DNA of 64,000 bases, from the NCBI GenBank assembly GCA_963695545.1, contig OY968796.1:1472001-1536000 (forward strand). The letters are read 5' to 3'. A model generated the notes under the pieces. The model saw nothing but the letters and a program-made list of their open reading frames with translations. It had not been told where the DNA came from and searched no databases. Below, in pieces: positions 1 through 12,884 of the stretch. How positions within the stretch are numbered: position 1 is the stretch's first letter; every line of letters begins with the position of its first letter. The position numbers and the translations under genes are program-made. The stretch comes from Terriglobia bacterium (GTDB taxonomy: Bacteria > Acidobacteriota > Terriglobia > Acidiferrales > UBA7541).

Positions 1-65
1 ACCAGTGCGGCCTGGCTCTTCGGCGCATTCCAGGCACCTTCTTGGCAAATGGGGGGAACGTTCTA

Positions 66-473
66 GTGAAGAAACTCTATATCGGGAATCTTCCGTTTCA
101 GGCCACTGAAGAAGAAATCACTGAATGGTTCACGCAAACCGGAGTAACTCCTTCCAGCGTCATGCTGATCCGCGACCGCTTCACGGGCCAACCTCGTGGC
201 TTCGGCTTCGTAGAAATTCAAAACGATGAAGAGGCCCTGCGCGCCGTCCAGGCGCTGAACGGGCAGCAGCTCAAGGGAAGAAGCATCGTGGTTAACGAAG
301 CGCGTCCGCCGCGAGATGGCGGTGGAGGCGGCGGGCGCCCCGGGGGCGGCGGTGGTGGGCGCGGCGGATTTGGCGGAGGCGGAGGTGGTGGCCGCGGTGG
401 CGGAGGCGGCGGGCGCGGCGGCGGTGGTGGCCGAGGCGGCGGGGGCGACCGAGGCGGCGGGCGCGACTGGTAA
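66..473 (+). CDS. RNA recognition motif (RRM) RNA-binding protein with Gly/Arg-rich tail
   Basis: RNP2 KKLYIGNL, RNP1 RGFGFVEI, VVNEARP end of domain, RGG tail; GTG start at 66 preferred over TTG 42. Confidence 0.93.
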   Translation: MKKLYIGNLPFQATEEEITEWFTQTGVTPSSVMLIRDRFTGQPRGFGFVEIQNDEEALRAVQALNGQQLKGRSIVVNEARPPRDGGGGGGRPGGGGGGRGGFGGGGGGGRGGGGGGRGGGGGRGGGGDRGGGRDW

Positions 474-603
474 GAATAGTCTTCTCATCGGATCGGCGCC
501 GACCTGCTCGGGGCGCATTGCTTCAATCAGCTGCGTGTAACGCACTGCTTTAATCAACCACGCGGAGCGCACGCCTTCAACCAACCGCGCGGAGCACATT
601 GCT

Positions 604-1881
604 CTAATGGGCCGAGGCGCGGTGAGCTTCGGCCCGCTCCGCGGCGTTTCCGGATCGCACCTCTTCGATCTGCTCAACGCGCCCGCCCGAATAGCGGTAG
701 CGTTCGCGTGTCGCCGACTCGACGCCGCGCGCCACCAGTGCAGGCACATCCAGGCGCGCTTCGGCCTGATCGAGTTCTTCCGCGAGCGCGTGCAGCGCCG
801 GAGTGCGCGGCAGAAACAGCGGACAGCAATCGTGAAATGGCTCCGCGGAAATTTCGTAGGTTCCGATCTTCCGCGCGATCGCCAGAATCTCCTGCTTGTC
901 GTCTCCCGCCAAAGGACGAAACACCGGCATGCGCACCGCGTCGCCCACGGCCACCATGTTGTGCAGCGTTTGCGAGGCCACTTGTCCCAGGCTATCTCCC
1001 GCGACGATGCCTTGCGCGCGATCCGCGAGCGCCAGACGTTCCGCGATGCGCAGCATCATCCGGCGATAGAGCAGCACGCGATACGTTTCCGGCGCCTGAC
1101 CCACGATTTCGCGCTGGATCGCCTCAAACGGCACCAGATGCAGTTTCGCCGTAAATTGATACGGCACCAGGCGCCGCACCAGTTCGCGCGCCACGTGCAC
1201 CGAGCTTTCTCCCGCCCGCGCGCCGCCGCCCCAGAAATGCACGAAGCTCAAGTGCGCCCCGCGCTTCATCATTTTGTACGCGGCCACCGCGGAATCGAAA
1301 CCGCCCGAAAGCAGGCACGCCATGCGCCCCGCCGTGTTCGCCGGCAGACCGCCCGGCCCCGGAATTTTTCGCGCGTAAACCAGCGCCGGTCCCGGCGGAA
1401 TCTCGATGCGGCAGGTCAGCTCCGGATCGCGCAACTGCACGCGAACTTCATGCCCCGCTGCCCGCAGCCGGTCGAGCAAATATCGACCCACGATCGTTTC
1501 GATTTCGGTCACGCTGTGCGGGAACGATTTGTCGCTGCGCTTGGCGCGCACGGCGAAAGTCGAAAATCGCTCGGACGCAATTTCCTCCCACGCCGCGCGG
1601 CAAATATCTTCCATCGGTCGCTCGCCGCCCCGATCCACCGGCCGCGCCACGGCGTAATAAGCCACGCCGAAAACGCGCTCGAGACGCGCCCGCGCCTCAT
1701 CGAGCGATGGCCCTTCCCCCAATTCGATCACCAGCCGGTCCGCGGGCCGCGTCACGCGCACAAGCTCCAGCCCCTCGAGCGTCGAGCGCACCGCCGCAAC
1801 CAGCTTCGAGAGGAAAAATTGGCGATTTCCCCCCTTCAGCCACAGTTCGTGATAATGCGCGACGATCACTCGTTTCGTCAT
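604..1881 (-). CDS. thiI: tRNA 4-thiouridine(8) synthase ThiI (THUMP + PP-loop)
   Basis: HYHELWLKGGNR N-terminus, GPGGLP, LLSGGFDS PP-loop, GDSLGQVASQTL, DCC; ATG 1881 (upstream ORF extension crosses a repeat element). Confidence 0.93.
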   Translation of the reverse strand: MTKRVIVAHYHELWLKGGNRQFFLSKLVAAVRSTLEGLELVRVTRPADRLVIELGEGPSLDEARARLERVFGVAYYAVARPVDRGGERPMEDICRAAWEEIASERFSTFAVRAKRSDKSFPHSVTEIETIVGRYLLDRLRAAGHEVRVQLRDPELTCRIEIPPGPALVYARKIPGPGGLPANTAGRMACLLSGGFDSAVAAYKMMKRGAHLSFVHFWGGGARAGESSVHVARELVRRLVPYQFTAKLHLVPFEAIQREIVGQAPETYRVLLYRRMMLRIAERLALADRAQGIVAGDSLGQVASQTLHNMVAVGDAVRMPVFRPLAGDDKQEILAIARKIGTYEISAEPFHDCCPLFLPRTPALHALAEELDQAEARLDVPALVARGVESATRERYRYSGGRVEQIEEVRSGNAAERAEAHRASAH

Positions 1882-1988
1882 AGGAGCAATTCCAGGAAGG
1901 TTCGTTGCCCGTAAAGTATAACAGCAGACGCCGCCGCGGGCTGAGATGAGCTCGTGATGCGTATTGCGAGAGCGAGATCGCGGCGGGA

Positions 1989-2152
1989 GGGGGGTACACC
2001 CCCGGGTATGTTTCGCGTAAGCGCGGCAAGCACAGGGCTTGCAGGAAAAGAGTGAGAAAGAGTGCGCAAGAGATTGAGCGCAATGGGTTTGCGAGCGTTT
2101 ATTTTCAATAAGATGCGCACTCCTTTGCATTTGGTTTGGAATCATTCGTTTA
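1989..2152 (-). repeat. Dispersed AT-rich element, copy 1 core
   Basis: 1992-2055 aligns to revcomp of 21983-22044 (6 mismatches, 2 gaps); 2100-2129 matches 57351-57380 at 27/30. Confidence 0.85.
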
Positions 2153-2354
2153 CGGCGACACAATTGTGCGGGTAAGCGCGGTTCGGTCGCGATCAATCGA
2201 TGATATTTTGTAGACCAGGCCGGGCGGGCGACAGGGAGGCTCCGCCGTGCGTGCGCGGACTTGACCGCCAAGATTCGCACGGTTGAGCTGGGCTCGAACG
2301 GAAAAATCTTGAGCGGGCGAGCGGTTGGGAGGTGTGGTTCGAGGCTCATGCGTG

Positions 2355-2384
2355 ATGGTAGCACGAAGGGCAACGCAATGTCAA
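2355..2384 (-). promoter_or_regulatory. Sigma70-type promoter upstream of element copy 1 / thiI
   Basis: TTGACA-N18-TACCAT with extended -10 TG; ATG 5 nt after the -10 (2349). Confidence 0.6.
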
Positions 2385-2525
2385 TATTATCTATGAGTTA
2401 TAATTCGAATGCGATGGGTGTGAGGGCATAGCGGAATGATTTTGCGTGAGATTTCCAGAGTCTTGGTCCTCCGTCTTGTAACGATTGCGATACGGGCGAG
2501 ACGACCCGCGACGGGCGAAACATTG

Positions 2526-2893
2526 AGAAAACGTCCCGTCTGTCCCCGATGATCCTGCCAGACATGTCCGCTGGACTTGTGAGACGCGTTCCAATACGAA
2601 GCATAGCGCCCATGGGTTTGTTTCAAGGCCAACGCGAGGGCTTGGGTCTTGCGCGGAACGACCACTAAATGCATGTGGTTGGACATCAGGCAGTAGCCCA
2701 GCAGCGATAAGTCGTGGAGTTGAACGTACTGGCGTAACAGCTCCAGGTAAACCGAGCGTTCGCCATCGGAAGCGAGAAGGAGTTGCCGCGCGTTACCGCG
2801 CTGCGTTACATGGTGCGGGACATTGGCGACTACGATACGAGCCAAGCGAGCCATCACCCGATAAAATACCAGAAAACGTCCCGTCTGTCCCCG
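2526..2893. repeat. 23-bp direct repeat (2526-2548, 2871-2893) bracketing a truncated RAYT
   Basis: AGAAAACGTCCCGTCTGTCCCCG occurs twice exactly. Confidence 0.85.
2550..2854 (-). pseudogene. Truncated REP-associated tyrosine (Y1/HUH) transposase
   Basis: MARLARIVV..PHHVTQRGN..YCLMSNHMHL..GHVWQ then broken by the repeat; catalytic Tyr region absent. Confidence 0.85.
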
Positions 2894-2940
2894 GGTTCCG
2901 TCCCCGGTTTTCGCGGCCTTCCATTCGCGGTCGAGAGGAT

Positions 2941-3351
2941 TCAATCCTTTTGATTCAAGAAGCGGCCGAGATATGCATTCAGTAGTGCATTCTCGATCAG
3001 GGTGGCGAAGAAAAACTCGATTAGCCCGACCTGTCTCAACCGCAGTAGGACCACGAATCCCAGGCCGAAGTGGAGAATCGAAAACAGCACCAACGGGCCC
3101 CAGAATCTGCGCGATCTCCAAAAGGGTTCGGAGTGGCGTATCGCATTGCCGAAAACCAGGGCGCTCATGATCCCGAACCCGAGCCACTTGAGCGGCAGTC
3201 CGGACGTTCGACCCAGCCTGCCTTGGTGGACTGCGTAAACCCCGCCAACGACGACTAGTAGAATACCAATCAGGCAGTAGAGCAGCAGGTCCCGAAGCCT
3301 CCGACGGACAGTGCCTGGATGCGGATTGTTCGCAGGTGCGTTCAATGGCAC
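2941..3351 (-). CDS. Small 4-TM membrane protein, candidate immunity partner
   Basis: Hydrophobic segments; start overlaps the stop of the upstream toxin-like remnant. Confidence 0.55.
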   Translation of the reverse strand: MPLNAPANNPHPGTVRRRLRDLLLYCLIGILLVVVGGVYAVHQGRLGRTSGLPLKWLGFGIMSALVFGNAIRHSEPFWRSRRFWGPLVLFSILHFGLGFVVLLRLRQVGLIEFFFATLIENALLNAYLGRFLNQKD

Positions 3352-3558
3352 CCTCCGCTGGTTGCCGTCTCCCCTTCCTGGATGTCTGCCTGAAACAGGG
3401 CACCGTCGATATATCCGGCGGCCGTCTCGGCCGCGCTCTCCACAGCACTTCCGTTCTTGATATTGTTGAACGGTCTAGAATTGTTAGGGGCGATGAGTCC
3501 TGTCCCCCCTTCAACGTTGGGCCTTGACGCGGCGTACTTCATCGCGTTACCAGCCCTG
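3342..3558 (-). pseudogene. C-terminal remnant of an ORF cut by the RAYT arm, possibly an RHS toxin tip
   Basis: Open frame runs from the arm boundary to TGA overlapping the next gene; assignment from context only. Confidence 0.35.
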
Positions 3559-4465
3559 ACGGGCGGGTGGCGCGCCCTTCCGTGAGCATGTGCATTTTCG
3601 ATCTCCACGCGCGAATGATACCATTAGCGACCTTCACCTTCGAGTAACATCGCGTGTCAGTCGGGATGCGGTTTGCGCAGCCCGGGGTGGCCCATTCTTT
3701 GTCCGCCGCGGCGGACAAAGGGTGGGGATTTCGATTTCGGGGTCGCTTCTACGGGCCCTCGTCGATCCGGACGAGTCCTTCCACGCCCTTCGCGTAATAC
3801 GACCAGCTGCTCCACGGCCAATCCTTTGGATGACCCACCAGCTTGTTCTTCACCGGATTCATGTGCATGTATTCGAGCTTCTCGATTTTTTTCTTGTGAC
3901 TCCACACGTTGAAGTCGTGAAATCTGCGCTGCCAGAATTGGCGCGGCACGAGTTCGCCTTCGACGAATGCGAACGGCAGCTGCGTTTCCGGCGCGCGCTT
4001 CTTCCTCGCGCGCAGGCGGCGCGAAACTCTTTGCTTCAGCACTTGCATCACGGTGGAAGGCGTTCCTTTCGCCGGTTCGCTGATTAGCAGGTGAACGTGG
4101 TTGGGCATCACGACGTATCCGACGAGGAGAAATCCGTAGCGGTCGCGCACTTCCCCGAGAATTTTTATGAACACGTTTCTGGCACGCGCGGAGGCAAGCA
4201 ACGGCAACCGCCGGTAGCACGTGTAGGTGAGGAAATGCAGGTCTTGATTGCCGTAGTAGCGTTTGAGATTCCAGGGCATGAAGGCGAACCCACGGACCCA
4301 CCCTTTGTCCGCCGCGGCGGACAAAGGATGGGCCACCCCGGGCTGCGCAGACCGCAGCCCGATGGACGCGCGATGTTACTCCAAGGTGAAGATCGCTAGT
4401 GGTGTCATCCTCGCGTGAGGACTAAAAAACTACAGAAGCAAACAGAGGGTGCGCCACCCGCCCGT
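3559..4465. mobile_element. RAYT element 1 with ~165-bp inverted arms (3559-3727, 4297-4465)
   Basis: Arms are imperfect reverse complements, each with perfect palindrome CTTTGTCCGCCGCGGCGGACAAAG and terminal GGG(T/C)GCGCCACCCGC. Confidence 0.88.
3749..4279 (-). CDS. REP-associated tyrosine transposase (RAYT, Y1 HUH), copy 1
   Basis: LHFLTYTCYRR, YVVMPNHVHLL (HUH), FWQRRFHDFNV, KLEYMHMNPVK (catalytic Tyr), WPWSS. Confidence 0.92.
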   Translation of the reverse strand: MPWNLKRYYGNQDLHFLTYTCYRRLPLLASARARNVFIKILGEVRDRYGFLLVGYVVMPNHVHLLISEPAKGTPSTVMQVLKQRVSRRLRARKKRAPETQLPFAFVEGELVPRQFWQRRFHDFNVWSHKKKIEKLEYMHMNPVKNKLVGHPKDWPWSSWSYYAKGVEGLVRIDEGP

Positions 4466-4515
4466 GCGCCGAAGTTGTCCAGATTGGATTCTGTGTCCCG
4501 TTCTTTGCCGGTATA
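4462..4515 (-). pseudogene. RHS-associated core fragment cut by the RAYT arm
   Basis: YTGKERDTESNLDNFGAR then directly REP arm sequence. Confidence 0.8.
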
Positions 4516-4850
4516 ACGTGATCCGCCACGATTTTCCAGCAACGCTCCGTCTATCCCTAGTGCGCTCGCGGAGTTAGACCACGCACTGCCCTGATGTGGT
4601 GCTACATTTTTCCTCGCGAACCCCAGACGCGAGTTTTCGCCTACACCCTCGAAAGCATCTAAAGGAAAAAACACACACGGATCGCTGCATGACCCACGGA
4701 ACACGTGTTCTTGAGCTGCTTCCATTGGCGGGTACCCGACTCCCTCCGCACGCTCCTGGGTCAAGCAAGACGCCGCCAGCACGGTTTCACGCGGCGGTCT
4801 AACCCTCCCCTACTGTTTGTCAGGCTCCGGCTTTGGGAGCTTTCGGGCCT

Positions 4851-5381
4851 TTACGTTGGCAACGGAAAAATCACGAGCCGATATCCGGCGAAGGGAAGGG
4901 GATGGCCCCATCCTCCCCATTTGCCGACGACCTTGCCCGACACATCATGGAGAAGGCCTAACGAGTCTTCGGTGGTTCCAGCCGGGACTGTGGCAACCTC
5001 CAGTTTTCCGGTTAGGGCTGCCTGAACCTGGTACATAGGGCATGCCTCGCAAGGGCGCTCTTTCGTTCCTTTGTAGACTGCGCTTGTGTACTTTTGAAAA
5101 CGCTTGAGATTCGCGTCGGGATGCTCCTTAAAATTCGGAGATTCCTCGCCAGCTTCTCCGTACACGAGCACAACTGCATCCCGACATCCCGGAATGTTGA
5201 GCAGCATGTCGTGCGGACCATCCACAACGCTTCCTTGGAGCGTGACAGTCTGGCCATTCGTGTATGACGAAAGCGCGCAAGCAGTCTGATTACCCTGTTG
5301 TGCGACGGCGGTTGCTGAACAGAACAAGAGAAAAAATATCGGGCACGCTAGTGCAGACACGGCAGCGCGCGCAGGCTTCAC
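4851..5381 (-). CDS. Secreted Cys-containing protein in the RHS cassette; 3' end possibly frameshifted
   Basis: Signal peptide; GTGA overlap with the upstream gene; one more T in the run at ~4866-4870 would extend it to TAG near 4810. Confidence 0.65.
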   Translation of the reverse strand: MKPARAAVSALACPIFFLLFCSATAVAQQGNQTACALSSYTNGQTVTLQGSVVDGPHDMLLNIPGCRDAVVLVYGEAGEESPNFKEHPDANLKRFQKYTSAVYKGTKERPCEACPMYQVQAALTGKLEVATVPAGTTEDSLGLLHDVSGKVVGKWGGWGHPLPFAGYRLVIFPLPT

Positions 5382-5842
5382 TTCTTTCCTGCTGGCATAT
5401 CCACTGTACCGGGCCAGCGTAGGGCTTCCACTTCAACTGCCGAGGGGAGGTTGAGTATCACGCGCGGATTATTTTGGGATGGTTCTAGGTCCGTCACAAG
5501 TTTGTAGGTGTAGGTCACGGTGAACGTGGTTGGCGTGTGGGGCGAGAACTGCCACGTTCGGAGGTTCTCCTCAGCAAAATCAGCTAAGAGCTTATGGCCG
5601 TCCTCAACTTGTATGGAGACTACGTGGTGGCCATCCGTCGTGGCCTTAAGGTGCACTACCCCTTCAACATTTGCGAGGCGTGCTGTCGGAGGGTACAGAG
5701 GCACTTGGGCCGAAGTAACCATAGGTAGGGCCACGCGCACTTGCTGTGCGCCTATCGCCAAGCTTTCCAAAAGTAGAAGACTCGCCGCCCCGACTGCTCG
5801 CCAAAGAAAATTGCCTTTCATCAGATTTGCTCCTATGCCCAT
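5378..5842 (-). CDS. Secreted TonB C-terminal domain-like protein
   Basis: Signal peptide; PLYPPTARLANVEGVVHL..GHKLL..WQF TonB_C pattern; TGATG coupling with the toxin ORF. Confidence 0.75.
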   Translation of the reverse strand: MGIGANLMKGNFLWRAVGAASLLLLESLAIGAQQVRVALPMVTSAQVPLYPPTARLANVEGVVHLKATTDGHHVVSIQVEDGHKLLADFAEENLRTWQFSPHTPTTFTVTYTYKLVTDLEPSQNNPRVILNLPSAVEVEALRWPGTVDMPAGKK

Positions 5843-6582
5843 CAGTTCGGCCAGGGATTGTGTGGCGTCGTCTCTGGATGAGTCGGTTGTCCGTTTTGGT
5901 CATGGAATCTCGTAACGAAATTGGTGATGTTCTTATCCACTTGCGCCCAACTTCCGTTCCAAAGAACGTAGTTCGTTCCGTCGTAACTCCGAGAAAACGA
6001 GGTCGCTCCAAGCGCGGACGCAGCGAAGATTGAAGTCTGGTATCCGCGATATTCGGTGGAGAAAGGGCTAAGGCTTGGCAAGGATCCGAGAGTGATGTAG
6101 TCGTTGACAGCCTGTGTTAGGAAATCCTCGACGTGCGTACCCTCGTGAGCCGCGTCTATCGCATACTCGCCCTGGCTGCTTATCTTGCTCGGATCGAAAG
6201 TGATAGTAGCTCCAAGCATGCCACTTTGACTGGCGCTGAAATCGGTTTGGGCGGCTGCATCCCCGCTCAGTGCGCCAAACGTGACGTTCACTCCGTTGTT
6301 GTCGCCTTGGGTTCCTAGCGCCGTCAGTGATGCTTCGAGCCTATCTTTTGCAGCGCCGTTCTTCATCTTGTCCACTTGCTTCTGTAAGTTGGACAGCCCA
6401 TTCTTCAAGTCCTTCGCGTGCTGATTGAACTGCTTGTTGCATTTCTTGTCGTCTGAGGCGCAGTTGTTCACCAGGTCGTAGAGTCCTGTTGGATCGATGA
6501 TGTTGAGCGGATTGTTTAGCGCATAGGCGTACCGATTCCACGTTTGAGGATTGCTAGGTCGTCCGCTGTTCAGCAACGGATC
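5842..6582 (-). CDS. Orphan RHS C-terminal toxin cassette with HExxH motif (5'-truncated)
   Basis: DPLLNSGRPSNPQTWNRYAYALNNPLNIIDPTG (PxxxxDPxG core end) then variable tip containing AAHEGTH. Confidence 0.88.
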   Translation of the reverse strand, partial: DPLLNSGRPSNPQTWNRYAYALNNPLNIIDPTGLYDLVNNCASDDKKCNKQFNQHAKDLKNGLSNLQKQVDKMKNGAAKDRLEASLTALGTQGDNNGVNVTFGALSGDAAAQTDFSASQSGMLGATITFDPSKISSQGEYAIDAAHEGTHVEDFLTQAVNDYITLGSLPSLSPFSTEYRGYQTSIFAASALGATSFSRSYDGTNYVLWNGSWAQVDKNITNFVTRFHDQNGQPTHPETTPHNPWPN

Positions 6583-7481
6583 GCGGGTGGCGCACCCTTT
6601 GTCTGCGTCTGTAGTTTTCAGCCGTCACGCGCGGATGATACCACTAGCGACCTTCACTGTGGAGTAACGTCGGACGTCCGTCGGGCCGCGGTGTGTGCAG
6701 CCCGGGGTGGCCCATTCCTTGTCCGCCGCGGCGGACAAAGGGTGGGGCTTTCGATTTCCGGGGTCGCTTCTACGGACTCTCGTCGATCCGGACGAGTCCT
6801 TCCACGCCCTTCGCGTAATACGACCAGCTGCTCCACGGCCAATCCTTTGGATGACCCACCAGCTTGTTCTTCACCGGATTCATGTGCATGTATTCGAGCT
6901 TCTCGATTTTTTTCTTGTGACTCCACACGTTGAAGTCGTGAAATCTGCGCTGCCAGAATTGCCGCGGCGCGAGTTCGCCTTCGACGAATGCGAGCTGGAG
7001 TTGCGTTTGCGGCGCGCGCCTGTTCCTCGCGCGCAGGCGGCGCGAGACTCTTTGCTTCAGCACTTGCATCACGGTGGAAGGCGTCCCTTTCGCCGGTTCG
7101 CTGATTAGCAGATGAACGTGGTTGGGCATCACGACGTATCCGACGAGGAGAAACCCGTAACGGTCGCGCACTTCTTCAAGAATCTCAACGAACACGTTTC
7201 TGGCGCGCGCCGAGGCAAGCAGCGGCAAGCGCCGGTAGCAGGTGTAGGTGAGGAAATGCAGGTCTTGGTTGCCGTAGTGGCGCTTGAGATTCCAGGGCAT
7301 GACGGCAAACCCACGGACCCACCCTTTGTCCGCCGCGGCGGACAAAGGATGGGCCACCCCGGGCTGCGCAGACCGCAGCCCGACGGACGCGCGATGTTAC
7401 TCCGAGCTGAAGGTTGCCAGTGAATCCATTCCCGCGTGGAGATCGAAAATGCGCACCCTCACGGAAGGGTGTGCCACCCGT
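6583..7481. mobile_element. RAYT element 2 with inverted arms (6583-6748, 7318-7481)
   Basis: Same arm architecture and palindromes as element 1. Confidence 0.88.
6770..7300 (-). CDS. REP-associated tyrosine transposase (RAYT), copy 2
   Basis: Near-identical to copy 1; HUH and Tyr motifs intact. Confidence 0.92.
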   Translation of the reverse strand: MPWNLKRHYGNQDLHFLTYTCYRRLPLLASARARNVFVEILEEVRDRYGFLLVGYVVMPNHVHLLISEPAKGTPSTVMQVLKQRVSRRLRARNRRAPQTQLQLAFVEGELAPRQFWQRRFHDFNVWSHKKKIEKLEYMHMNPVKNKLVGHPKDWPWSSWSYYAKGVEGLVRIDESP

Positions 7482-7808
7482 CCTAGGATTCACATATGCG
7501 CATTGGCGGCAAAAATGGATCGAGGGCGGAATGGTATGGAAACGCGTGAGCCTAAAGCCTCCGCCAAATTGGCACCCTGGAGACCAACTGCGGCATGTGC
7601 TGCCCGCATGATTCACCCTTCGGAGCCGGGCGGTGACGATTTTGAAACAGGATCGAAACAACGGCGAGTTCACCGTAGACGCCCACCACCTTTGGGCGTA
7701 TACGACAATCTCTGACGTGGACCGTGGCTTTGTGTGACCTTTCGAGGGGCTAGAGCATCTGAGATACTTCAGGCGCTCCGGTCAAGCGAGCAGACGGGAG
7801 TTGTTGAT

Positions 7809-8075
7809 GTGGATAAGCGGGATTGGGAAGCATATTTCGAGATTGCCCGGACTCCCGGGCGGCGCCGCCGTCCGCCCCGGCCGATCTGCCCGAGTGAGGC
7901 CAACCACATTCTTCCGGCCATCGGCTTCAGTCTATCTGAGCTTGACGACGCCGGGATTGACGTCGAACTCGCCGAACGTCTCGGCCTGCCCGTAGATGCC
8001 GGACGCATTGGAGCTTATGGTCCCAATGTCTCGAGCCTGCGCGAGTTTGCCAGGATGGCCCGCCGTCCCGGTTAA
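7809..8075 (+). CDS. Small protein resembling ribosomal protein eL13 (L13e)
   Basis: GFSLSELDDAGI..AERLGLPVD.GR....NVSSLREF pattern; GGGAG RBS 8 nt before GTG 7809. Confidence 0.6.
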   Translation: MDKRDWEAYFEIARTPGRRRRPPRPICPSEANHILPAIGFSLSELDDAGIDVELAERLGLPVDAGRIGAYGPNVSSLREFARMARRPG

Positions 8076-8160
8076 CGCTCGGTAGTTCTATTACTGGGTG
8101 CAGCCGCCGCGCCTGCAATTCGCTTGACGGCCCGGAAACTTTCGGTAAACTGCCAACTTC

Positions 8161-8454
8161 ATGCTGACGATGATGACGCCCGCGACCGTGATCCTTTCCG
8201 AAGAGGCGGATTTCGCCTTTCCGCAGCGCGAAGCGGCCTTCTTCTACGGTCTATTCCTGCGCGGCCACTCCGCCGACGAGTTGCGCCGCGATATCGAGGT
8301 CCCGCCAACCATCCTGGCAAAATGGCATCGCGAGGCCGAGCGCGAGCCGGACCTGCGCGACGTCTTCGACCGCATGATCACCTACCGGCGCCACGTGCTG
8401 GCCATCTTCGAGTCGCTGGTTGGCAACGAGAACCAGATCCAACGCGTGCAGTAG
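8161..8454 (+). CDS. Hypothetical protein
   Basis: Clean ORF with host-like codon usage; TTGACG and TAAACT-like boxes upstream. Confidence 0.7.
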   Translation: MLTMMTPATVILSEEADFAFPQREAAFFYGLFLRGHSADELRRDIEVPPTILAKWHREAEREPDLRDVFDRMITYRRHVLAIFESLVGNENQIQRVQ

Positions 8455-8563
8455 CCCGTCCCGGCTGCGCGCCCGCTCGCCGGCCGTCTTTACTTCCGGT
8501 TTTTCGTCCGCTACACTCCGCGCTTGAGTCGCCGAAAACCCTTCTTTCGCGGATCCCCAGGAT

Positions 8564-8638
8564 TCCCCGGTAGCTCAATGGTAGAGCATTCGGCTGTTAA
8601 CCGAAGGGTTGCTAGTTCGAATCTAGCCCGGGGAGCCA
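8564..8638 (+). tRNA. tRNA-Asn (GTT)
   Basis: TCCCCGG/CCGGGGA acceptor stem, GTT anticodon in TTCGG-CTGTTAA-CCGAA, TTCGAAT T-loop, CCA end. Confidence 0.97.
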
Positions 8639-8670
8639 AACTCCGATTCCTCAAGCAGTTCGATGAAGCA

Positions 8671-8699
8671 GGAGCGTTCGATCGTCTATTGAATGCTCC
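8671..8699. terminator. Hairpin between convergent tRNA-Asn and DinB-family gene
   Basis: GGAGCGTTCGAT..ATTGAATGCTCC stem with G-U pairs. Confidence 0.4.
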
Positions 8700-8724
8700 C
8701 CGCAATCGCTCGATTGTGGCGAAA

Positions 8725-9222
8725 TTAGCCGAACGGTTTCTCGTCCGCGCTGGGGCCGTAAATCGAAGGCACCGGAACGTCCAGCATCCGCAGATAGACC
8801 GAAAGCTGCCCGCGATGGTGGTAGTTATGATTCATCAGGATTGAGCGCACGAATCCGATGCGCGGGATGGTCATCAACACTTTTCCGTTTTTCGTCAAGC
8901 TCCACATGGACATCAGGCGAGCGTCGTCCATCTTGTTCAGCGTTTCCTTCGCGCTCGCCAGGCTTTTCGCGAAAGCGTCCAGGATTTCCTGCCGGCTCTT
9001 CGGCTCCGCCTGCGAGAAGCTCGGAGCTTCAAACGTGTCCTGCGCGGCCGCCGCTGCCACGCGGCCCTGCAGAGACGCAATGTGCAGGCCCAATTGTCCC
9101 AGCGAGTACGATTTCGGGTGCGGCTTCCACGTGAGGTTGTCCTCGGGGATTCGATCCAGCACCCGTTTCGTCGTCTGTGCTTCCTGATCAATCTCCATCA
9201 AGAGAGAATCGACAATTCTCAT
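8725..9222 (-). CDS. DinB/DUF664 family protein
   Basis: WKPHPKS..LGQLGLHI; NHNYHHRGQLSVYLR..VPSIYGPSAD. Confidence 0.9.
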   Translation of the reverse strand: MRIVDSLLMEIDQEAQTTKRVLDRIPEDNLTWKPHPKSYSLGQLGLHIASLQGRVAAAAAQDTFEAPSFSQAEPKSRQEILDAFAKSLASAKETLNKMDDARLMSMWSLTKNGKVLMTIPRIGFVRSILMNHNYHHRGQLSVYLRMLDVPVPSIYGPSADEKPFG

Positions 9223-9292
9223 GCGTGTTCCTTTCCGTGCGGAGAAGTTTTGCCGTTCAAATTCCTAATTCCTGGCTACAGCGCGCCGAGAT

Positions 9293-9763
9293 TCACCGTG
9301 CGCGCGCCGCCTCGGCCCGCTTACGAGTCTCCTCATTGAAATGCGTCCATCCCTTGCCCAGCCCCGTTCGATGCTCGTCTTGAATCAGCCCGAACGCCGT
9401 GTGACGAAATGTAATCAGCGTCCCGCCATTCTCCTCGCTCAGCCGATACTGCACATTCGAGATCACCGGAGACGACATGAACAGCGGCCCGCTGAATTCA
9501 AGCAGCGTCGGCCGCTTGATCGCCTGCACGTTGGCCCAGAAGTGGCCGTCCTCGCCGCCAAGATCGCGATACCACCGTCCGCCGGGCCGCGCCTCCAGCT
9601 TGAACGGCAACGCCTTCCCCTCGGGAGTGCTGTTTTCGGGGCCGAGCTGCTCGAGCAGCGCCGCGAAAGTCACATCCAGCGGCGCCTTCACGTGGATTTC
9701 CTGCGTGATGTTCAAGGTCATATCTTCGATCGTTCTCTCTAGCTTCGGTGCTGTCGAATTCAT
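9293..9763 (-). CDS. SRPBCC/AHSA1-like domain protein
   Basis: LEARPGGRWYRD, GTLITFRH, GW C-terminal helix; follows ArsR gene. Confidence 0.85.
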   Translation of the reverse strand: MNSTAPKLERTIEDMTLNITQEIHVKAPLDVTFAALLEQLGPENSTPEGKALPFKLEARPGGRWYRDLGGEDGHFWANVQAIKRPTLLEFSGPLFMSSPVISNVQYRLSEENGGTLITFRHTAFGLIQDEHRTGLGKGWTHFNEETRKRAEAARAR

Positions 9764-9826
9764 CGTTCCTCCTAGAATTAAGAATTTGTCGTGCAGCTCG
9801 GATCAAATCCGGTCCTGCTCGTCGCA

Positions 9827-10162
9827 CTACTCTCGCTCGCCGCGTTTCCCTTCCGCCCGCTCCTTCACACGATTCAACTGATGCCGCCAGTACCGCTCGA
9901 ACGTGCTGGTCCATTCGTGCAACGGTTGGATCGCCTCGGCGTTCACTCGATACATCCTTTTGCGGCCGTCCCGGCGCACGTTCACCAGGCCAACGTCGAG
10001 CAGCACCCGCAGGTGTTTTGACACCGAGGGCTGCTCCATCCCCAGCGCCGCCACAATTTCCCCGACCGGCCGCTCCCGCAGCACGAGATAGTTCAATATC
10101 TCCCGCCGGCGAGGCTCGGCGACCGCGTTGAACGCATCGGAGGTAGTTGCTGCGCGAGCCAT
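9827..10162 (-). CDS. ArsR/SmtB family regulator
   Basis: DAFNAVAEPRRREIL..QPSVSKHLRVL winged HTH. Confidence 0.92.
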   Translation of the reverse strand: MARAATTSDAFNAVAEPRRREILNYLVLRERPVGEIVAALGMEQPSVSKHLRVLLDVGLVNVRRDGRKRMYRVNAEAIQPLHEWTSTFERYWRHQLNRVKERAEGKRGERE

Positions 10163-10169
10163 GTGCGTC

Positions 10170-10197
10170 ATTATATGTCCATATGAGAATATGTCAA
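10170..10197 (-). promoter_or_regulatory. Consensus promoter with overlapping imperfect palindrome (likely ArsR operator); leaderless start
   Basis: TTGACA-N16-TATAAT, ATG 7 nt downstream; dyad centred on CATATG. Confidence 0.75.
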
Positions 10198-10275
10198 GCG
10201 CTTTTTTTCTGCCGTTCCAGCAGGGTTCGGCGCTGCTTGACAATCCCGGCAGCTTCTTCCAAAATCTGCCAAGGC

Positions 10276-10290
10276 GAACAAAAAGCGAAA
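10276..10290. promoter_or_regulatory. Candidate LexA box
   Basis: GAAC-N7-GAAA, one mismatch to the GTTC-N7-GTTC direct repeat described for Acidobacterium/alphaproteobacterial LexA; 40 bp before imuA. Confidence 0.6.
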
Positions 10291-10330
10291 ATTATAGACA
10301 CTCCGCTTTCTCCGCGCCGCCGCTATTTCC

Positions 10331-11230
10331 GTGCCTCAAAACCTTTCCGCCTTGCGATCGAAACTCGAAGCGGCTCTGGCCGGTCGCGTCGCTGCGCCTT
10401 TTGCGGTTCGCGATCGCCAGCTTTTTCAGACGGTTTCCGCGGGCATCGCCGAAATCGACTTTCTGACCAGCGGTTTGCCGCGCGGAGGGCTCACGGAAAT
10501 TTATGGCCCGTTCTGCTCCGGCCGCACGAGTTTGCTGCTTTCGGCCTTGGCGTCCCGGACAAATACCGGCGAGGTCTGCGCTCTTGTGGATGGATGCGAT
10601 GCCTTCGATCCGCATTCGGCGCAAGCCGCCGGCGTGGAATTGAAAAAGCTGTTGTGGGTGCGTTGCCGGAATCTGGACCACGCCCTGCGCGCCACGGATT
10701 TGCTTTTGCAGGGCGGCGGCTTCAGCCTGATCGCCCTCGATCTGAGCGATATTTTTTGGAAAACCATCCGCAATGTGCCGCTGCATGTCTGGTTTCGTCT
10801 GCGGCGCGCGGTGGAAAACACGCCCACGATTCTGATTCTTCTGAATCGGGAGTCCCAGGCAAAAACGTGCGCCTCGCTGGTTCTGCGTCTCGAAGCCGAG
10901 CCAACCTGCCGGATCACCGTGCCGGAAATTTGCGATCCCCGTTTTTTTCAGCATTCGTGGACATGTTTGTTTGATGGATTTGAAATCCACGCGGAACGAA
11001 TCCGTTCTCGCGTGCAATCCGTCACGGACGCATATGGCGGCAATGTCGCCGCCCCGGTAATCGCGGACAGCAAGGCGTCAACGTTTAAAACCCGGGCCCT
11101 CTGGAGTTACTTCAGCCGCGATGCGCTCCGCGGCCCATTGAAGCAATGTGCTCCGCACAGCCCGGTGAAGCAATGCGCTCCGCACAGTCCATTGAAGCAA
11201 TGCGTTCCGCGCAGTCCGGTCGTGAGGTGA
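10331..11230 (+). CDS. imuA: ImuA / RecA-like protein
   Basis: GLPRGGLTEIYGPFCSGRTSL degenerate P-loop, ALVD..DAFDP; first gene of the mutagenesis cassette. Confidence 0.85.
   Translation: MPQNLSALRSKLEAALAGRVAAPFAVRDRQLFQTVSAGIAEIDFLTSGLPRGGLTEIYGPFCSGRTSLLLSALASRTNTGEVCALVDGCDAFDPHSAQAAGVELKKLLWVRCRNLDHALRATDLLLQGGGFSLIALDLSDIFWKTIRNVPLHVWFRLRRAVENTPTILILLNRESQAKTCASLVLRLEAEPTCRITVPEICDPRFFQHSWTCLFDGFEIHAERIRSRVQSVTDAYGGNVAAPVIADSKASTFKTRALWSYFSRDALRGPLKQCAPHSPVKQCAPHSPLKQCVPRSPVVR
11140..11220 (+). repeat. 3 x 27-bp tandem repeat in the imuA 3' end
   Basis: GAAGCAATGYGYTCCGCRCAGYCCRKT units at 11140, 11167, 11194. Confidence 0.85.
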
Positions 11231-11264
11231 GGATTGGGCAGGTTTCTTTCCCGATCGCGTTTTT

Positions 11265-12884
11265 ATGGCTTTTGCCGCCATTCACGTTCCCGACTTCATG
11301 CTGCAAGCCGTGGTGCGCGCCGAGCCGCATCTTCACGGCCGCGCCCTGGTTCTCATCGAAGGCGCTGCTCCCCTCGAGATCGTTGTGGCCGCCAGCGAAG
11401 CCGCCTTGCGCGCGGGAATTGAGCTCGGCATGGCGAAGTCTCAAGTGGAGCAGTTCTCCGTCATGGAAATTCGTCATCGTTCCTGCGCGCAATCGCGCGC
11501 GCAGGAAAAATCCGCGCACGCGGCCTTGCTCGATCTCGGATGGTCCTTTTCGCCGCGCCTTGAAGACGTTGCGCCGGATACCATCGTTCTCGATCTCGCG
11601 GGTCTGCAAGTTCTTTACAGTTCCAAGGAAAATATCGCGGAGCAATTGGCCGTGCGCGCCCGCGGTCTGGGTCTTGCGGCGAACGTCGCGATCGCGTCCG
11701 AGATTGAATCTTCCATCATCGCCGCGCGCAGTTTTTCGGGAATTACATTGATTCCCGCGAGCCAGGAAGCGAAGCGCTTGGGCTGTTTGCCGGTCGCGGC
11801 GCTTTCGCCGTCCGCGGAACTTCGCGAAATATTGGAACGCTGGGGAGTGCGCACCTGCGCGGCGCTGGCTGCGTTGCCCGTTCTCGATTTGTCGGAACGA
11901 TTGGGGCAGGAAGGTGTGCGCCTCCATGCGTTGGCTCGAGGTGAAAATGCGCGCGCGTTGATCCTTGCCGAGCCGGCCGCAACTTTCGAGGAGGAAATGG
12001 AACTCGATGACGCCGTGGAGGAACTCGAGCCGCTGGCGTTTATTCTCGGCCGGCTACTCGATCAACTTTGCGCCCGCTTGAATGCGCGTTCGCTCGCCGT
12101 GCAAGTGATTCGCCTGCGATTCGATCTCGAACGCTCCCCCGAAAAAAACATCCGGTCCCTGGAAGAAGACTCGCGCCAAAAACCAAACGCGGCCATTTAC
12201 GAAAAAACCGTGACGCTGCCAGTGCCAATGCGCGATTCCAAAATGCTTTTGCGATTGCTGCGCTTGAAGCTGCAAGCGGATCCGCCGCCGGCCGCGATTT
12301 GCAAAGCCGTGATTGCCGTCGATCCCGCCGGGCCGCGCTCGACACAAGGCGGATTATTTCTTGCCGGTTTTCCCGATCCCGAAAAGTGGGAGTTGATGAT
12401 CGCGCGTCTCGCAAATCTGGTGGGCGAAGCCAATGTCGGCTCGCCCGAGCTGATGGATACGCATCTTCAAGGTGAATTCCGGATGGACCGGTTCGCAACT
12501 TTTGCAAAAGAAGCGGGCCTTGCTCGAAACAGAAAAAGTGTCCCGGCGCAAGACCCCGTGACGGCGTTTCGTGTTTTTCGGCCGCCCTTCGCGGCCAAGG
12601 TCGAATTGCGCGAGGAGTGTCCCGTGCGCATTGTGTTTTGCGGCGTGCGCGCCGAAGTGATCGCCGCCTCCGGTCCGTGGCGCACATCGGGAAATTGGTG
12701 GGCGGAAAATGTTTGGCAGCACGACGAATGGGACATCGAGATTCGCTGTGATTGTGTTTCTGCTGACGATGTGCGCGGACGAAATTCAGCCGCGCGCTCC
12801 GAAACGCCTCCGCGCAATGGAATGTACCGCATTTATTTCGACGGCCTGCGCCGAAGCTGGTTTGTGCGCGGAGTCTACGATTGA
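11265..12884 (+). CDS. imuB: ImuB, inactive Y-family polymerase
   Basis: FSPRLE..LDLAGL; C-terminal GPWRTSGNWW..WD..GVYD; between imuA and dnaE2. Confidence 0.88.
   Translation: MAFAAIHVPDFMLQAVVRAEPHLHGRALVLIEGAAPLEIVVAASEAALRAGIELGMAKSQVEQFSVMEIRHRSCAQSRAQEKSAHAALLDLGWSFSPRLEDVAPDTIVLDLAGLQVLYSSKENIAEQLAVRARGLGLAANVAIASEIESSIIAARSFSGITLIPASQEAKRLGCLPVAALSPSAELREILERWGVRTCAALAALPVLDLSERLGQEGVRLHALARGENARALILAEPAATFEEEMELDDAVEELEPLAFILGRLLDQLCARLNARSLAVQVIRLRFDLERSPEKNIRSLEEDSRQKPNAAIYEKTVTLPVPMRDSKMLLRLLRLKLQADPPPAAICKAVIAVDPAGPRSTQGGLFLAGFPDPEKWELMIARLANLVGEANVGSPELMDTHLQGEFRMDRFATFAKEAGLARNRKSVPAQDPVTAFRVFRPPFAAKVELREECPVRIVFCGVRAEVIAASGPWRTSGNWWAENVWQHDEWDIEIRCDCVSADDVRGRNSAARSETPPRNGMYRIYFDGLRRSWFVRGVYD

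Follow-up and report, generated by a model that had tools for sequence, protein, structure and literature searches.

Introduction

The REP-associated tyrosine transposases (RAYTs, or TnpA-REP proteins) are HUH nucleases that act on repetitive extragenic palindromes (REPs), and their contribution to host fitness is described as unclear in the accessible part of 10.1101/2021.07.10.451892. Here we analyze a stretch of 64,000 nucleotides from a Terriglobia bacterium of the Acidobacteriota (assembly GCA_963695545.1, contig OY968796.1, positions 1,472,001 to 1,536,000), which we call the window, in which two RAYT elements bracket pieces of RHS polymorphic toxin genes and small partner genes. The locus is one copy of a widespread acidobacterial RAYT element joined to pieces of RHS loci, and likely acts as a capture system. 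Such an element would likely stock the cell with antidotes to the toxins of its rivals, as immunity genes placed behind a predicted promoter.

The closest described elements are the TIRtrons, or TIRYTs, and the REPtrons (Di Nocera 2013, PMC3733652; Quentin 2018, PMC6006769). From what is accessible of these papers, they share with the window a class 2 Y1 HUH gene lying between long, partly self-complementary inverted repeats, and a group of TIRYTs from Acidobacteria has been described (PMC3733652). The same portions report no cargo, link to toxins or outward promoter, and the word Rhs is absent from PMC6006769; the window differs in its three close copies per genome and its arrays of elements and cassettes. 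The kind of element is already known, and the link to RHS and immunity cargo appears to be the new part.

The model for E. coli TnpA-REP and bacterial interspersed mosaic elements (Ton-Hoang 2012, PMC3333891), as far as its accessible text goes, has the enzyme cleaving at inverse REPs and at a distance, with strand exchange, proposed circles inserting near REPs and the sequestering of gene fragments. All of this resembles what we propose; what sets the window clade apart from that portion of the model is frequent capture, a fixed end and cargo biased to toxin-immunity loci. The nearest reported association is that of TnpA-REP with the prochlorosin gene procA (Laurenceau, 10.1101/2020.03.09.984088), where the linkage of a RAYT to a diversified gene family recurs with a fixed polarity. 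That enzyme belongs to another RAYT subclass and lies beside intact facing genes with no arm-gene fusions, and a note added by the authors states that causality lacks support (10.1101/2020.03.09.984088).

The rAID-1 arrays of Bacteroidales (Ross, 10.1101/471110) also hold low-GC orphan immunity genes that are separated by repeats and linked to a recombinase, which the accessible part of that report gives as a XerD-family tyrosine recombinase; the rAID-1 system is integron-like. In the window we find instead an HUH nuclease, an arm and a predicted promoter for each cassette, and junctions that pass through coding DNA. ISCR elements are rolling-circle elements with ori and ter ends. In the available sections of PMC6218425 and PMC3333891, capture by ISCR and IS91 elements resembles the window in its HUH-family enzyme, outward promoters and co-oriented captured genes; the window differs in its Y1 enzyme, its symmetric REP-derived ends and its cargo, which consists of immunity genes and not resistance genes. 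Arrays of orphan RHS and effector-immunity genes, which homologous recombination shuffles, are a source of such cargo and retain old immunity genes (accessible parts of PMC3967940 and PMC5361080). Those arrays remain at the toxin locus and recombine through core homology, whereas window-type cassettes occur at unrelated sites with core pieces too short to recombine. We found no report linking a RAYT to RHS or to immunity capture in the openly accessible literature, a search that did not cover subscription journals or supplements.

Results

Two RAYT elements bracket an RHS cassette

Read along the minus strand, the locus comprises in turn element 2, a piece of RHS core with a toxin tip, partner gene 1, partner gene 2, a spacer, a second core piece, element 1, a remnant and a membrane gene. 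Element 2 (6582..7482, minus strand, arm ends at 7482 and 6582) and element 1 (3562..4462, minus strand, arm ends at 4462 and 3562), each measured from end motif to end motif, are 91% identical. They are intact RAYT units with sharp ends, and they bracket the core-tip piece, the two partner genes and the start of another core. The first-pass annotation had described an RHS cassette between two intact RAYTs whose arms cut the core, and the layout, frames and motifs bear this out. That the region is a misassembly of repeats is very improbable indeed, since the surrounding contig of 4.16 Mb is unbroken by any N, 9% of sites distinguish the two elements, and the same layout is found in independent genomes and metagenomes.

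Each element contains an open frame of 176 amino acids on the minus strand, RAYT 2 at 6770..7300 and RAYT 1 at 3749..4279, and the two proteins are 94% identical. Both have the HUH motif NHVH and the Y---NP motif of class 2 TnpA-Y1 proteins in the form YMHMNP (compared with Table 1 of PMC6006769), with FWQ also noted in RAYT 2. They score 112 and 109 bits respectively on NCBIfam REP_Tyr_transpos (NF047646; cut-off 80 bits) and below the cut-off on the IS200 model. RAYT 1 also matches PF01797 and E. coli TnpA-REP (4ER8, E 1.9e-5). A single-sequence fold of the RAYT reached a predicted local distance difference test score (pLDDT) of 42 and was not used. The relatives of these proteins come almost all from Acidobacteriota records, and a search of viral contigs returned none.

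The genes are flanked by inverted palindromes, with a 36-nucleotide hairpin in both arms, as in RAYT/TnpA-REP units, and the terminal inverted arms of about 165 nucleotides around the Y1 gene, 79-87% complementary, are those of a TIRtron or TIRYT. Other classes were rejected. The foot of the hairpin reads GGTG/GTGG and not the GTAG of a GTAG-type REPtron; the accessible part of PMC6006769 assigns GT[AG]G feet to subclasses 2.7 and 2.8. REPIN-RAYT groups 2 and 3 are non-duplicating, with a typically single-copy RAYT and a large REPIN population, while the source genome has three close copies, 15 strict ends and about 12 clear REPs. An IS200/IS605 element would have Y---Q, tnpB, ends on one strand and precise insertion; here we find Y---NP, no tnpB-sized open reading frame (ORF) in an element of about 900 nucleotides, symmetric ends, and RHS flanks that fail to rejoin. 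For rAID-1 or an integron, a tyrosine recombinase is missing beside the array, and the HUH protein is the only enzyme in the unit.

The end of element 2 joins DPLLNSGRP..NNP..DPTG and a tip of 213 amino acids (5842..6581, minus strand). This piece comprises the 3' third of an RHS core and a tip with HEGTH, an HExxH motif that suggests a metallopeptidase-like activity; it has 44 longer relatives, the best 74% identical and most of them annotated as RHS. An RHS polymorphic toxin has a core that ends in DPxG, then a variable tip, and a small gene coupled to it; the arrangement here is the same, with a truncated core that scores 27 bits, below the cut-off. The search for a tip family gave only weak M91 and Tox-MPTase4 leads, below 0.9. 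The stop of the tip overlaps the start of partner gene 1 (5378..5842, minus strand), and the stop of partner gene 1 overlaps the start of partner gene 2 (4851..5381, minus strand). Partner 1 is predicted to be secreted and TonB-C-like (a weak TonB_C match, below cut-off) and is likely the cognate immunity protein. One homologue of its gene lies downstream of a native RHS core, and six are found on contigs equal in size to those encoding RHS proteins with the window tip. Partner 2 is secreted or lipoprotein-like, with no convincing family, and is possibly a second immunity protein. Past the spacer, the 5' piece of a second RHS core (YTGKERD..FGAR; 4463..4518, minus strand) is cut by the arm of element 1, and at this junction YTGKERDTESNLDNFGAR joins the element. 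A 72-codon remnant (3342..3561, minus strand), tip-like by position only, is fused to the outer arm of element 1, which reads into it as well; a homologue search found no longer relative of this remnant. Overlapping the remnant is a small, immunity-like membrane gene (2941..3351, minus strand) that is 38% identical to cargo of another arm-bracketed cassette (L189).

The element has a fixed end and a promoter-like site

Both elements have inverted arms with a 24-bp palindrome, the copy at 6711-6746 containing one mismatch. The downstream arm of element 2 (6582..6746, minus strand) consists of the REP palindrome, a second hairpin, an outward promoter-like site (extended -10 site, 6663-6635) and a terminal half-REP. 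In the upstream arm of element 2 (7318..7482, plus strand) the -10 motif is degenerate. The upstream arm of element 1 (4297..4462, plus strand) points antisense into RHS and its -10 motif is mutated; in the downstream arm (3562..3726, minus strand) the motif is intact and a GTG lies in the frame of the following ORF. The outer parts of the arms fall into two subtypes. The two inner arms, downstream of element 2 and upstream of element 1, are of subtype A and match at 38/50 positions; the two outer arms are of subtype B and match at 44/50, and cross pairs match at 27-32. The inner arm segment folds with z scores of -6.0 and -3.2 in the two arms tested, and the outer arm halves mostly fold no better than shuffles.

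The arms terminate at the motif AAAGGGTGGGCCACCCGCC, which is sharp, conserved in about 100 ends per side and followed by a near-random flank. The sole preference beyond it is for C at +1 (60/113 upstream ends and 54/101 downstream). End calls numbered 338 in real loci and 0 after shuffling; a loose REP expression gave many chance matches (19 in shuffles) and was discarded. The cleavage register is not fixable from the positions of the junctions.

The outward -10 motif is present in 44/103 upstream arms and in 0/86 downstream arms, and both motif-bearing arms aimed antisense into RHS have an altered -10 hexamer. The arms of the source genome are symmetric, with the intact motif located on those that face tips, and this accounts for the reversed orientation there.

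Elements of the IS110 family are inserted in the REP head of arms at L034 (4830-5900 and 6689-7759), L222, L223 and L258, twice within one element, and an IS110 end remnant adjoins a solo arm at C1:1200627 of the source genome.

The junctions with RHS genes lie at arbitrary positions

We examined 382 distinct end flanks, including loci picked for RHS, and found 36 junctions between an end and RHS body or core, a few of them weakly supported. All positions are different, ranging from about 1190 amino acids before the core end to core position 48, and with none shared a fixed junction base is rejected. A quick tree built from 88 RAYTs requires 13 gains or losses of the fused state, with metagenome rows entered only if fused. 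When RHS sequence lies on both sides of an element or cassette it does not rejoin; there are gaps of tens to hundreds of codons, and in one case an overlap (L049). This indicates two independent joints.

The first-pass annotation proposed that the REP arms target RHS cores or are the ends of a unit that moves or swaps toxin-immunity cassettes, and named reuse of the same junction base as a check. In the form weighed here, the RAYT and its arms would recognize the RHS core and swap tips to create new working toxins. In the window the two junctions are indeed near-complementary, as the FGAR-DP spacing is 12 residues in 38/44 of the longer relatives with this tip. A similarly small gap occurs in only 6/228 junction pairs from other loci (window rows and weak rows dropped). 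Joints also crowd near the core, with 10/19 outward joints in the last 110 amino acids and 10/12 inward joints in the last 150. This clade is moreover the only one enriched at RHS among RAYTs, and captures of RHS body alone suggest a bias toward RHS DNA that selection for immunity would not give. However, crowding is expected where orphan modules are short, and the flanks share neither a base nor a target motif beyond one C. Many tips are reduced to stubs. The core pieces of the cassette are 63-75% identical to the one full RHS gene of the genome, with exact runs of no more than 9 nucleotides, so there is little homology to that gene; no rebuilt toxin was seen, and excision scars were not searched for. 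We consider the swapping of tips onto full RHS genes improbable, and the idea of a set target within the core is not supported, given the spread of the junctions.

At one other locus (L048, 5388-5849) the RHS tip fused to an arm end carries a serum amyloid A domain (PF00277, above cut-off). The RHS bodies at L223 and L268 contain a short in-frame repeat insertion, PERSRG/PEPSRG, within the coding sequence.

Arm-bracketed cassettes retain small genes in one polarity

Defining a cassette as two inward-pointing ends 120-3200 nucleotides apart, we find 53, most of them with a truncated tip, one intact small gene, or both. Among arms with enough flank, 27/80 upstream and 15/76 downstream lead into a cassette. 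We scored 51 after excluding two that had been picked for RHS, sorting them by our own reading. Sixteen of the 51 contain RHS sequence, a member of the SUKH immunity family or a homologue of a gene directly downstream of a native RHS core, and 6/51 are plainly unrelated. The rest are mostly small membrane or secreted ORFs of no known family, often following a tip-like stub. Domains of WapI and colicin-E5-like type lie outward of other upstream arms.

The cassettes are strongly polar, 27/29 of those with a -10 motif reading away from it. The last gene stops inside the cassette in 33/35 hand-picked cases, and in 13/32 it does so within 30 nucleotides of the end. The cassettes keep the likely immunity gene intact and not the toxin. 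Replication-strand bias as the cause of the polarity received no support from GC skew (33 against 30), which is a weak proxy. A codon model of the flanks called 12 sense and 2 antisense upstream, and 4 and 11 downstream, with little power because most flanks scored as non-coding.

An arm promoter could also express a tip that lacks its delivery apparatus along with its immunity protein, the two forming a type II toxin-antitoxin pair and stabilizing the element by addiction. The whole tip of the window lies after the promoter-like site and has an in-frame TTG, and orphan rhs pairs act in this manner in Salmonella (accessible part of PMC7043789). Yet many cassettes have a tip stub or no tip, the fusions show no in-frame bias, and many partners look secreted or membrane-bound and would be ill-suited to a cytoplasmic pair. 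We regard addiction as quite improbable.

Cassettes are found at sites without RHS in relatives

The source genome has three close RAYT copies, 90-94% identical to RAYT 2. The third (C1:1198716-1199647) reads directly into a toxin-like tip and small gene, and a second arm end closes this cassette 3 nucleotides past the stop. Of the 15 strict end calls in the genome, 5 touch toxin- or immunity-like DNA. RHS is not near either of its two RAYTs from other clades. A single further RHS core is present, within the sole full-length RHS gene (C1 1206356-1211328), 7 kb from the third copy and interrupted by an IS3-type element; the strain may have lost its own RHS weapon while retaining immunity cassettes.

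We compared empty and filled alleles of two sites. The whole insert (1932..7628), extending from thiI to a conserved block that adjoins tRNA-Asn, is missing in four relatives (G003, G001, G002 and G005), and G004 has different cargo. The site of the third copy is a 10-nucleotide gap in three relatives. Neither site holds an RHS body in the relatives, and therefore the cassettes arrived from elsewhere. This agrees with the other proposal of the first-pass annotation, that the arms are the ends of composite units carrying tip-immunity cassettes. The same thiI site is occupied in L034 by an independent array of two clade elements, whose cargo comprises a tip, an immunity gene and a SUKH gene. The first leads into a tip and gene homologous to the pair of the third copy (31% and 39%), and the other into the SUKH gene.

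A second dispersed repeat (window 1932-2400; C1 ~1007200, ~1200800, ~1709400 and ~2026400) lies beside many arms and both element sites, and could be a marker of sites permissive for insertion. Solo arms also form arrays, three in the same direction at intervals of 0.7-2.2 kb, at C1 1710467-1713532 and 2958867-2962640, and the three arms of the first array give a GTG in frame with non-toxin ORFs.

Proximity to RHS genes and the neutral explanation

In 75 loci picked by RAYT similarity alone, with flanks fetched up to 6 kb, an RHS core is found within 6 kb in 22, antiparallel to the RAYT in 19/22. As a control we used 16 kin genomes selected for having RHS; kin are not independent, so p-values overstate. 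Here a core is found within 6 kb of 14/40 RAYTs of the clade, where 0.8 would be expected, compared with 1/42 of other RAYTs, in keeping with the suggestion that the arms would be enriched at RHS loci. For IS110 the count is 6/33, but 5 of those 6 have an arm end within about 450 nucleotides and sit in or beside arms. IS110 was rejected as an independent control on this ground, which makes IS3 the fairer one. A comparison at 400 bp (p=0.03) is biased by domain position within the elements and was not used.

A number of results weigh against the capture explanation. No RHS core is near 53/75 of the RAYT loci, and 53/80 upstream arms have no bracketed cassette. IS3-type elements lie within 6 kb of RHS in 12/56 cases against 14/40 for the clade (Fisher p=0.08 against pooled insertion sequences), and 4 of 12 abut RHS coding DNA against 8/40 for the RAYTs. 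Since IS3 clusters at RHS too, proximity alone is largely what any insertion sequence shows. In-frame fusion to the arm start codon is not the rule (14/40 against 42/80). Some cassettes contain RHS body only (151 and 308 nucleotides) or unrelated genes. In favor of capture, cargo ORFs match DNA downstream of 118 native cores in 8/61 cases against 3/665 low-GC control ORFs, but the controls of this comparison include spurious frames and length was the criterion for choosing the cassette ORFs. For most cargo ORFs there is no family, and immunity is assigned from size, topology and position. In the source genome the solo arms, among the matches listed, mostly flank ordinary genes. Nine wider alleles of the thiI site, fetched after the family survey, comprise eight with unrelated cargo and the RAYT-filled L034, so the site is permissive, taking any insert, and not dedicated.

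The IS3 counts, equal within error, the body-only and unrelated cassettes, the solo arms beside ordinary genes and the other cargo at thiI would all be accommodated if a TIRtron lands in tolerant sites like any insertion sequence and makes adjacent deletions. The cassettes would then be decaying leftovers of RHS arrays with no adaptive role. Such a neutral origin fails, however, to predict the polarity of the cassettes, the changed -10 hexamer in antisense arms, the intact last genes trimmed near the stop, or the cassettes at sites with no RHS in relatives. Neither does it fit the near-absence of other RAYT clades of the same genomes from RHS loci. We consider it rather unlikely.

Other features of the window

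A truncated RAYT of another subfamily (2398..2893, minus strand; NF047646 30.9 bits, below cut-off) has its own repeat ends (repeat D6) of GGGACAG type. A like end with an N-terminus is fused to RHS body at L223 (~8400-8670) and L268 (2477-3682), and this second RAYT family may behave similarly toward RHS. Two small conserved genes lie beside tRNA-Asn (7734-8075 and 8161-8454); neither is annotated, and the second is matched in 141/151 family genomes. Tandem and inverted repeats of 27 nucleotides (499-621 and 11124-11220) flank an RNA-binding gene and an imuA-imuB-dnaE2-like cassette. In an Rfam scan of positions 1-12000 the tRNA was the sole match.

Discussion

We favor the explanation that RAYT cut-and-join captures flanking DNA, with RHS loci as common places of insertion, and that selection keeps those cassettes expressing immunity genes, to which we would assign a probability of about 0.5. 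The ends are fixed, the flanks are arbitrary, the cargo is bracketed and has polarity, and cassettes have moved to new sites. From this we infer that the RAYT cleaves and transfers strands at the end, that circles form and integrate at resident arms, and that the arms act as promoters of genes conferring immunity.

Under the favored explanation an element would first land in an RHS array, a common sink for insertion sequences. Two independent RAYT cut-and-join events on single-stranded DNA would then leave a fragment of arbitrary length bracketed by ends. Through strand exchange by the RAYT, or through homologous recombination, the unit, probably as a circle, would enter a REP or a resident element elsewhere, creating arrays of element, cassette and element. 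Further end-joining would trim the toxin part while the immunity gene survives. In the window, a circle with one element inside one RHS core would have entered a resident element. Such a circle fits the arm subtypes, one common to the inner arms and the other to the outer arms; the third element of the source genome also has an inner-type, subtype A arm (42/50), and this weakens the argument, leaving it only suggestive. For one group-3 enzyme a GTGG guide directs cleavage at CC (accessible part of PMC8266576). By analogy this echoes the CC at the arm end of the window, with a strand that is not an obvious fit.

A stronger form of the proposal is a dedicated HUH-nuclease capture system, a single-strand counterpart of the integron. 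Acidobacteriota would keep the clade for its ability to sample RHS loci, bracket the fragments between fixed ends, trim them to the immunity gene, set this behind the arm promoter and stack the products in arrays that move between REP sites and strains, which would be a first concrete host benefit for a RAYT. We hold this to be possible but doubtful.

In this clade the end sequence is fixed, natural junctions number in the dozens, both empty and filled alleles are available and a candidate benefit can be named, which makes cleavage, capture and protection each testable. If capture is confirmed, the element would be a small natural module for capture and expression, and unannotated immunity genes could be located by using its arm ends as tags. 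It would be the HUH counterpart of ISCR capture and of the rAID immunity arrays. Orphan-immunity arrays would then have a third way of arising, in addition to homologous recombination and the tyrosine recombinases, in the Acidobacteriota, a major soil phylum.

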